A DNA stretch of 54,876 nt from a virus (Duplodnaviria; Heunggongvirae; Uroviricota; Caudoviricetes), in IMG/VR virus record IMGVR_UViG_3300030250_000013; one strand, given 5' to 3'. Below, in pieces: positions 46,467 through 47,584 of the stretch. Below the pieces are notes generated by a model. That model was given only the letters and a program-made list of their open reading frames with translations. It was not told the origin of the DNA and did no database searches. The translations under genes were made by a program, and so were the position numbers. The first letter of the stretch is position 1; each line of letters begins with the position of its first letter.

Positions 46467-46664
46467 ATGAAACTATCAGAAGCACAAGATTATCAGCGTA
46501 GAATTTCAGACCTCATTAAACAGTTAAACTGTACGATACACGAAGCCTCAATCGTCGGAATTAATGTTGAACTTGATTTATACGAAGAACAAAAACTAAG
46601 TGGTGTAAACACTGTTGTTCTTGACGGAAAAGTTACTATCAAACCACAGGACATTGAACTATGA
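46467..46664 (+). CDS. hypothetical protein
   Basis: 65-aa ORF, ATGA-coupled to rdgC. Confidence 0.4.
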
Positions 46665-47584
46665 ACTTCTTTAAAAACGCAATCGTTTATCGTCTGACTA
46701 ATCCTATGGTATTAATGGCCCAGTTACCAACACTGGAAGACAGTCTGTGTGCGTTTCAATTCAATCCGTGCGGTTCACAGGATATGGCACGTACTGGTTG
46801 GGTTCCGGCAACTGAACAACATCATACACTGGTTCACCAGGCTAACGGGCAATATTTGCTGACCATCCAGAAACAGGAAAAGATTATTCCGGGTCCGGTC
46901 ATTAAACAGCATCTGAACGCGCGAATCGCCAAACTGGAAGCTGAACAGGCGCGTAAACTGAAGAAAACAGAGAAAGATAGCCTGAAAGATGAAGTATTGC
47001 ACAGTCTGTTACCACGAGCATTCGTTAAAAACAGTCGTACACAGTTGTGGATTGATATCACTAGCGGGTTGATCGTGGTTGATGCGTCCAGTGCTAAACG
47101 GGCTGAAGATGCATTAGCACTGTTGCGTAAATCCCTGGGTAGTCTGCCAGTCGTCCCGCTGACGATGGAAAACCCTGTTGAACTGACAGCAACGGAGTGG
47201 GTACGTTCAGGAAACGCACCAGCAGGTTTTACAATGGGTGACGCTGCTGAACTGAAAGCGATCCTGACTGACGGTGGTGTTGCACGCGTTAAAAAACAGG
47301 ATTTAACCAGTGACGAAATAGCCACGCATATTGAAGCCGGGAAAGTTGTTACAAAACTGGCGTTGGACTGGCAGCAGCGGGTAACGTTTACGCTAACTGA
47401 CAGTATGACATTAAACCGTGTGAAGTTCTGCGATGAACTGGTGTTACAGAATGACGATATTGAACGTGAAGATATGTTAGCCCGGTTCGACGCTGATTTT
47501 GTACTAATGACAGGTGAACTTCAGGCGCTGATCAAACAACTTATCACTGCTTTGGGTGGGGAGGCGAAACGTACAAGTTACTGA
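46661..47584 (+). CDS. rdgC: recombination-associated protein RdgC
   Basis: 307 aa; N-terminus [12 protein letters not shown] and [16 protein letters not shown] closely resemble bacterial RdgC. Confidence 0.75.

Follow-up and report, generated by a model that had tools for sequence, protein, structure and literature searches.

RdgC of Escherichia coli is a toroidal dimer with a basic pore of 30 angstroms that binds DNA without sequence preference (PMC2965237, PMC11077077) and loads itself on circular DNA by means of a finger (PMC2965237). The protein inhibits strand exchange and ATPase activity of RecA as well as the cleavage of LexA, and it counters the RecFOR-dependent loading of RecA (PMC2965237, PMC11077077). 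Mutagenesis defined R97, K98, K100 and K101 as the basic finger-tip residues that the ring needs for loading on circular DNA, R118 and F120 as the gate dimer interface, and Q212, E218, H222 and K227 as the horseshoe dimer interface (PMC2965237). Residues 1-75 fall, according to the published domain description, in the centre domain, which makes no dimer contacts (PMC11077077).

Phage-borne members of the family are well known: hrdC of P1 and P7 has been on record since the P1 genome, and the family constitutes PHROG 724. A tblastn search of 50,697 phage records detected RdgC homologues in 510 of them; among these are ICP1, lambdoid phages and many phages of Vibrio and Pseudomonas. Roughly 1% of sequenced phages carry the RecA modulator RdgC, and Bas82 of the BASEL collection is among the carriers. 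The hrdC gene of P1 was non-essential in a CRISPRi screen (PMC10695390) and was classed with replication and processing genes in transcriptome work, and rdgC of lambdoid phages is located in the nin/replication region (PMC12315714); in both cases the gene lies among early or replication genes. In addition, RexA of phage lambda shares the RdgC fold by structural homology, and the closed-ring conformation is absent in the RexA crystal (PMC11077077). A functional analogue only is the plasmid protein PsiB, a RecA inhibitor of mobile elements which is thought to prevent SOS or the action of RecA on foreign DNA as it enters or replicates (PMC2965237); PsiB is not related to RdgC, and its binding partner is free RecA and not DNA. 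Our literature search retrieved no experimental work on any phage RdgC, and the mentions of RdgC in the papers on retron triggers and on ShosTA refer to the host protein only.

The stretch of DNA analysed here, 54,876 nucleotides long and referred to as the window, derives from an E. coli phage, a virulent siphophage that belongs to the 9NA/Sasha group (Nonanavirus/Sashavirus). Its structural region is 92-97% identical at the nucleotide level to that of the E. coli phages AVIO78A, PDP46, PJ16 and KarinMuster (Bas82) and of the Salmonella phages Sasha and Sergei, and its TerL is 99.8% identical to TerL of AVIO78A. The phage supplies a DNA polymerase, a helicase and a primase of its own, together with two exonucleases, an endonuclease and a Gp2.5-like single-strand annealing protein, these gene calls drawing on the annotation of Bas82. 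One further gene of this phage is the subject of the present analysis:

46661-47584, + strand: rdgC coding sequence, 307 aa, ATG at 46661 and TGA stop at 47582-47584, encoding a full-length RdgC

A sequence-only reading had proposed a phage-encoded RdgC homologue of 307 aa at this place, and family searches bear this out with an exactly matching open reading frame and full-length matches in Pfam, NCBIfam, PDB and PHROG. The predicted product matches Pfam PF04381 with an E-value of 4.8e-115 and 384.4 bits (cutoff 25), residues 3-301 covering profile positions 2-298 of 298, and PHROG 724 with an E-value of 1.2e-126. It also passes the NCBIfam equivalog NF001462 (417.7 bits, cutoff 330) and the subfamily model NF001464 (329.7 bits, cutoff 227). 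The E. coli-type equivalog NF001460 is narrowly missed (476.4 bits, cutoff 501), which fits a separate phage clade and leaves membership in the RdgC family unaffected. Among solved structures, E. coli RdgC (2OWL) is matched with an E-value of 9.4e-129 (window residues 2-304 on 2-303) and Pseudomonas aeruginosa RdgC (2OWY) with an E-value of 1.4e-66 (window residues 3-301).

The sequence-only reading had also called for an alignment to E. coli RdgC. A global alignment to the K-12-type protein from an annotated chromosome gave 67.5% identity over 302 residues and, since the similarity spans the solved structure 2OWL from end to end, a likeness confined to the N-terminus of an otherwise unrelated fold is ruled out. 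An AlphaFold2 model reached a mean pLDDT of only 48.9 and a pTM of 0.38, computed from a shallow alignment of 17 sequences that are all at least 80% identical; assignment of the whole chain to the RdgC fold is thus based on the 67.5% identity and the end-to-end alignment to 2OWL and not on this model. Taken together, the sequence comparisons confirm that 46661-47584 encodes a bona fide full-length phage RdgC. An antisense open reading frame of 163 aa within the gene (46834-47325, - strand) was dismissed because it is the + frame that shows both the match to the family and the signal of selection at the codon level; in the same register as rdgC, the reverse strand of 46661-47584 contains many stops.

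The closest counterparts are the RdgC proteins of related 9NA/Sasha-like phages, which are orthologues of the window copy with 78-95% identity (AVIO78A gp005, PJ16_006, Bas82_0099, SP069 gp03, Sergei gp07 and VLCpiS10a S10a_00039). Neither the protein database nor the phage collection searched contains a record more than 95% identical to the window protein, and the window RdgC is, by these comparisons, a new sequence variant (at most 95% identity in the collections searched) of a gene that was already annotated. P1/P7 HrdC, another phage-borne member of the family, is 58% identical over its full length, but differs in residing on a temperate phage-plasmid where hrdC adjoins the DNA methyltransferase gene dmt. 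E. coli RdgC has the same size as the window protein, which differs from it in its higher pI (6.3 versus 5.3), in its origin from a virulent phage and in its location within a unit driven by a phage promoter.

In the records of related phages, the gene is labelled 'exonuclease', 'recombination-associated protein' or 'RdgC exonuclease', which raises the question of whether the product is a true exonuclease, as the annotations of AVIO78A, PDP46, SP069 and Bas82 state. What speaks for this are legacy names only, namely 'Putative exonuclease, RdgC' in Pfam, 'exonuclease recombination-associated' in PHROG and the record annotations themselves. The window protein matches solely RdgC families in Pfam, NCBIfam and PHROG and shows no recognisable nuclease domain or catalytic motif, while the genuine exonucleases of the phage lie elsewhere, at 7854-8999 and 4692-5198. 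Moore et al. 2003 reportedly found no nuclease activity for RdgC. Moreover, structural and biochemical papers describe RdgC as a non-catalytic DNA-binding ring and leave nuclease activity unmentioned (PMC2965237, PMC11077077). A role as an exonuclease is therefore extremely improbable; 'exonuclease' on phage RdgC records is a legacy name, for which 'recombination-associated DNA-binding protein RdgC' would be the better choice.

Conservation is concentrated where the E. coli protein is functionally defined. All ten residues identified by mutagenesis are identical in the window RdgC: the finger-tip residues R97, K98, K100 and K101 correspond to R98, K99, K101 and K102, the gate residues R118 and F120 to R119 and F121, and the horseshoe residues Q212, E218, H222 and K227 to Q213, E219, H223 and K228. 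All 16 members of the phage clade that were compared share the six interface residues without exception, as well as K100 and K101 of the finger-tip, while R97 varies in one member and K98 in two. These comparisons show that, at the level of sequence, both dimer interfaces (gate and horseshoe) and the finger used for loading on DNA are intact. Since the functional residues are conserved, the phage protein most likely performs the same chemistry as E. coli RdgC.

The remainder of the protein has diverged unevenly. Identity to E. coli RdgC amounts to 48.6% in residues 1-75, 90.2% in the finger (76-116), 69.7% in residues 117-205 and 70.4% in residues 206-303. The sequence-only reading had called the N-terminus strongly RdgC-like; the N-terminal sequence it quoted is indeed present, but residues 1-75 turn out to be the least conserved part of the protein. 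In this region, members of the phage clade share 82% identity with one another and cellular proteins 86%, yet only 47% is reached between the two groups, whereas the other regions retain 68-80% between groups. Residues 1-75 are not unusually variable among cellular lineages, as E. coli and Pseudomonas RdgC share 45-54% identity in all four regions. The distance between phage and cellular proteins in residues 1-75 equals that between E. coli and Pseudomonas there. P1-like RdgC proteins display the same N-terminal disproportion, but are just 33% identical to the 9NA-like type in residues 1-75; the change is thus specific to each lineage and does not amount to a shared 'viral' sequence. This disproportionate divergence could reflect a changed function.

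The phage genes form a lineage of their own. The best 120 database relatives of the window RdgC are all at least 80% identical and reside on phage-sized contigs of at most about 61 kb, while cellular RdgC proteins of Enterobacteriaceae and Erwiniaceae, sampled from Escherichia, Enterobacter, Kosakonia, Salmonella, Klebsiella, Pantoea and others, are 61-68% identical to the phage copies (64-67% by tblastn and 61-68% in the tree alignment). With P. aeruginosa RdgC as the root, a neighbour-joining tree calculated without bootstrap gathers the 9NA-like proteins in one clade whose sub-clades follow the host genus. This clade is sister to the lambdoid copy Tbat2_3 and lies outside the entire cellular cluster of Enterobacteriaceae and Erwiniaceae; P1-type HrdC forms a separate, deeper branch. 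Within the phage clade, dN/dS is 0.12-0.17 with dS of up to 1.2, compared with 0.025-0.05 for cellular rdgC orthologues, so that selection on the phage genes is 3-5 times more relaxed. Synonymous sites are saturated between phage and E. coli rdgC. Among 20 distinct phages with a TerL at least 87% identical to that of the window, rdgC is intact in 16 and missing from three (9NA, Sasha and 536P12), and Carvaje retains a fragment of 110 aa at the same site.

Phylogeny and divergence thus show that rdgC is old in this phage lineage, separate from the RdgC of the host and under purifying selection, and a recent capture from the host is rejected by the position in the tree together with the saturated synonymous divergence. 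The notion of a functionless passenger lately taken from a host chromosome, to which the location of rdgC in a hypervariable island and its dispensability lend some appeal, has to contend with the identity of only 61-68% to every sampled cellular RdgC, the saturated synonymous sites relative to E. coli, and the monophyly of the clade across phages of E. coli, Salmonella and Klebsiella at a dN/dS of 0.12-0.17. The GC content of the window gene (46.8%; E. coli rdgC 51.5%, phage 43.8%) likewise argues against it. This notion is refuted by the selection and phylogeny results, and we assign it next to no probability. Being old, selected and repeatedly lost, rdgC is a useful accessory, neither a core gene nor a recent host capture; accordingly, phage RdgC proteins represent an old, selected lineage and not recent pick-ups from hosts.

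The gene resides in an accessory island between terL and terS, whose features in the window are as follows:

42381-44144, - strand: terL, flanking the island on one side
44213-44233, + strand: first island copy of the promoter element, in the intergenic region between terL and the island
44393-48552, + strand (opposite to the flanks): variable accessory island of about 15 small genes plus rdgC
45983-46003, + strand: promoter element AATAATTCTTGACGGTTTACA with -35 TTGACG and candidate -10 TAGACT at 46014-46019, heading the rdgC unit
46025-46318, + strand: first gene of the rdgC unit, longest open reading frame 97 aa, likely ATG at 46053 giving 88 aa, no family match
46315-46470, + strand: second gene of the rdgC unit, 51 aa with a basic C-terminus, 4-nt overlap on each side
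46467-46664, + strand: third gene of the rdgC unit, 65 aa, with a weak match to PHROG 26258 only
47566-47596, + strand: likely deletion scar, comprising the last codons of rdgC (TSY) and about 20 nt resembling the tail of a 111-aa gene of relatives
47597-47617, + strand: next copy of the promoter element, TTGACG-17-TAAATT, kept in AVIO78A and Sergei and starting the following unit
48085-48105, + strand: fourth island copy of the promoter element, TTGACG-18-TATAAT, 11 of 12 matches
48661-49413, - strand: terS, the other flank of the island

The content of this island varies considerably among related phages: it comprises three small genes in Sasha and nine without rdgC in 9NA, while AVIO78A, SP069, Bas82, Sergei and the Klebsiella phage VLCpiS10a hold at least ten genes including rdgC. 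Where present in phages of E. coli, Salmonella and Klebsiella, rdgC occupies the same place in the same orientation. In the window it is the last of four genes chained by 4-nt overlaps (46025-46318, 46315-46470, 46467-46664 and 46661-47584); the stop of the first gene overlaps the next start by 4 nt, and that of the third overlaps the rdgC start in the motif ATGA. In VLCpiS10a, a 65-aa gene is found at the position matching the third gene of the unit. PHROG and Pfam searches with the 14 other island genes and the 111-aa gene of relatives returned only families of unknown function or sub-threshold noise, and no fixed partner gene of rdgC was found across AVIO78A, SP069, Bas82, Sergei and VLCpiS10a.

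The unit is headed by one copy of a 21-bp element, AATAATTCTTGACRGATTACA, which consists of an AT-rich stretch followed by a consensus -35 box and occurs in 13 copies in the window where none would be expected by chance. About 50 nt separate the copy at 45983-46003 from the first gene of the chain, which lies downstream; together with the overlapping gene arrangement, this shows at the level of sequence that rdgC ends a translationally coupled unit of four genes behind a phage promoter of the sigma-70 type. Four copies lie in the terL-terS island, all on the + strand (44213, 45983, 47597 and 48085). Another one at 7015 heads the exonuclease/annealase/polymerase operon, the four copies at 32874, 36771, 38543 and 40765 head other opposite-strand islands of small genes, and one on the - strand at 32559 faces a head-gene operon. 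The element is conserved in relatives infecting E. coli, Salmonella and Klebsiella. A generic scan yielded no excess of promoters (18 versus 14.4 +/- 3.1 in shuffled sequence) or of terminators (4 versus 4.5), and it was the specific repeated 21-mer that proved informative. Because the rdgC unit and the replication/recombination operon share the sigma-70-type element, the proposal of the sequence-only reading that rdgC belongs to an early block appears plausible.

The 3' end of rdgC bears traces of a rearrangement. The relatives examined encode an RdgC of 304-305 aa ending in ...GGEAKR, and the open reading frame of the window is 3 aa longer, an extension attributable to this rearrangement. 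In AVIO78A, SP069, Bas82 and Sergei, rdgC is followed by an overlapping gene of 111 aa and a hairpin terminator. Alignment to AVIO78A and Sergei reveals that the window lacks the body of the 111-aa gene as well as its hairpin terminator, and that its sequence rejoins that of the relatives at the next promoter element after the end of rdgC. The change is most simply explained by a deletion at the short shared motif GAAACG. Transcription of the rdgC unit would, as a consequence of terminator loss, continue into the following unit.

With respect to function, we give about an even chance to the reading in which phage RdgC, as a toroidal clamp, denies host RecA access to the replication intermediates of the phage, which would be helpful yet dispensable. 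The roles offered by the sequence-only reading, namely modulation of host recombination or SOS and protection of phage replication intermediates, are reasonable proposals. Judging from the biochemistry of the E. coli protein, a toroidal dimer made before or during replication would load on double- and single-stranded DNA without sequence specificity and, once bound, would limit the activity of RecFOR and RecA filaments on gapped and branched phage replication DNA. The activities affected would be strand exchange and the coprotease signal behind the cleavage of LexA. The phage itself would recombine by means of its own annealase and exonuclease and have no need of RecA, as its genomic context suggests, since it encodes a Gp2.5-like annealing protein, exonucleases, polymerase, helicase and primase. 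Restraint of RecA may then avoid unproductive joints on concatemers destined for packaging as well as the triggering of SOS.

Several observations weigh against this anti-RecA clamp. The gene is dispensable, as 9NA, Sasha and 536P12 do without it and Carvaje has a truncated form, and P1 hrdC is non-essential as well. Furthermore, the host possesses its own RdgC, and the benefit of a second copy of 67% identity has no explanation unless it lies in dose, timing or an altered surface. The timing of expression is read from promoter similarity, and the copy of the element facing a head-gene operon does not sit easily with an early role. The disproportionate N-terminal divergence could signal a changed function. 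Finally, RdgC of Neisseria promotes a recombination process, pilin variation (PMC2965237).

The last of these observations at the same time speaks for a pro-recombination factor, in which case phage RdgC would assist recombination-dependent replication or mosaic exchange with co-infecting phages. The presence of a recombination module consisting of a Gp2.5-like annealase and exonucleases is compatible with such a role. On the other hand, the window protein is much nearer to the enterobacterial type, the biochemistry of which is inhibitory (PMC11077077), and the four close relatives devoid of an intact rdgC, including Carvaje with its fragment, replicate normally. We consider a pro-recombination role decidedly unlikely.

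In another reading, RecA is not the relevant target and the ring would coat phage DNA or forks as a nucleoid-associated protein, stabilising or shielding intermediates or DNA ends, for instance from host nucleases and helicases, or aiding replication restart. RdgC has been described as nucleoid-associated and as binding DNA irrespective of sequence, and losing it is toxic to priA/priB cells (PMC11077077, PMC2965237); moreover, conservation within the phage protein is highest at the residues that bind DNA and close the ring. However, the priA phenotype has been attributed to the loading of RecA by RecFOR (PMC2965237), and a nuclease-protecting activity is not reported in the RdgC literature examined. 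A clamp acting independently of RecA is, in our estimation, rather unlikely.

The structural homology between RexA and RdgC (PMC11077077) invites comparison with exclusion systems. By analogy, phage RdgC might sense or mask DNA-protein complexes and thereby exclude competitors or disturb host defence, a role that has been proposed for lambdoid RdgC homologues (PMC12315714) and with which the lineage-specific divergence of the N-terminal surface would agree. RexA resembles the window protein in being phage-encoded, in its RdgC fold and in binding DNA non-specifically, yet the two share no detectable sequence similarity, the window protein being a close sequence homologue of RdgC proper. In addition, the terL-terS island contains no RexB-like partner gene, and the PADLOC defence models gave no match at an E-value of up to 1 for RdgC or two of its neighbours. 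Bas82, which carries rdgC, is not notably resistant to the defence systems tested (PMC11990801). An exclusion or immunity role is thus regarded as highly improbable.

As it stands, the finding matters little, given that the product is a recognisable RdgC which curators had labelled before. A further possibility emerges from the uneven divergence: the 9NA-like, the P1-like and, to a lesser degree, the lambdoid lineages may each have kept the clamp core while independently remodelling the N-terminal half of the centre domain, which in P1/P7 HrdC is 33% identical to the 9NA-like type, and may have arrived at a specialised viral version that does what the host RdgC cannot. We hold this to be an unlikely, speculative proposal. 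If it were true, the specialised protein might, for example, engage or evade a host partner, or it might serve as an early anti-SOS or anti-RecA counter-defence which would be analogous to plasmid PsiB and would act by occupancy of DNA. In any event, the N-terminal divergence of the centre domain offers a concrete place to seek a virus-specific property of phage RdgC.

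Downstream of rdgC, the related phages AVIO78A, Sergei, SP069 and Bas82 carry a 111-aa gene of unknown function, which is translationally coupled to rdgC and followed by a hairpin terminator. In the window phage, both this gene and its terminator have been deleted (window 47566-47620 compared with positions 3900-4300 of sequence record L088), and as a consequence RdgC is extended by 3 aa and no terminator precedes the next promoter. Further along the same island, a terminator-like hairpin on the + strand (47855-47878), comprising a 10-bp stem followed by a T run, is situated within ORF 47826-48089, which casts doubt on one of the two, the predicted ORF or the terminator. 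At the corresponding island position, Klebsiella phage Carvaje (L093, 2680-3012) encodes a 110-aa fragment labelled 'RdgC exonuclease', which appears to be a decayed rdgC remnant.

Beyond these phages, E. coli plasmids account for 540 rdgC-like places. Each of the three listed plasmid records has a size of about 95-96 kb and an rdgC annotation (e.g. NZ_CP039843.1, 29776-30204), and such rdgC-carrying plasmids of about 95 kb are probably P1-type phage-plasmids. In RCS47 and P1, hrdC, a member of the RdgC family (L089, 2489-3394), is located immediately upstream of the dmt methyltransferase gene. With respect to the bacterial sequences, two records, L009 and L010, are titled Enterobacter hormaechei, of which the RdgC tree took in the former and left out the latter. 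The RdgC of L009 clusters tightly with the Escherichia sequences, apart from the other genera, which may point to mislabelled genome records.

Elsewhere in the window, ORF 49809-50621 (+) harbors a 21-nt tandem repeat of 4.6 perfect copies (50400-50496). The repeat encodes VEAPVAR heptads. The protein as a whole, 270 aa long, belongs to PHROG 25538 and is of unknown function, and because the homologue in Bas82 comprises 251 aa, the copy number probably varies.

Several opposite-strand islands break up the late structural genes on the - strand. Each consists of small genes of unknown function and carries its own promoter element, and the terL-terS island is just one among them.

Opposite-strand small-gene islands
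32874-33340, +, island
36771-38296, +, island
38543-39302, +, island
40765-42254, +, island
44213-48552, +, island (terL-terS)

The 21-bp element AATAATTCTTGACRGATTACA, usually with TTTAA 5' of it, occurs in 13 copies in the window versus 0 expected.

Copies of AATAATTCTTGACRGATTACA
90-110, -, copy
1634-1654, -, copy
6951-6971, +, copy
7015-7035, +, copy
32559-32579, -, copy
32874-32894, +, copy
36771-36791, +, copy
38543-38563, +, copy
40765-40785, +, copy
44213-44233, +, copy
45983-46003, +, copy
47597-47617, +, copy
48085-48105, +, copy

The element heads the replication operon as well as nearly all opposite-strand small-gene islands, and is kept in the relatives from E. coli, Salmonella and Klebsiella. 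It looks like the standard promoter of the phage, of the sigma-70 type and furnished with an AT-rich upstream element.
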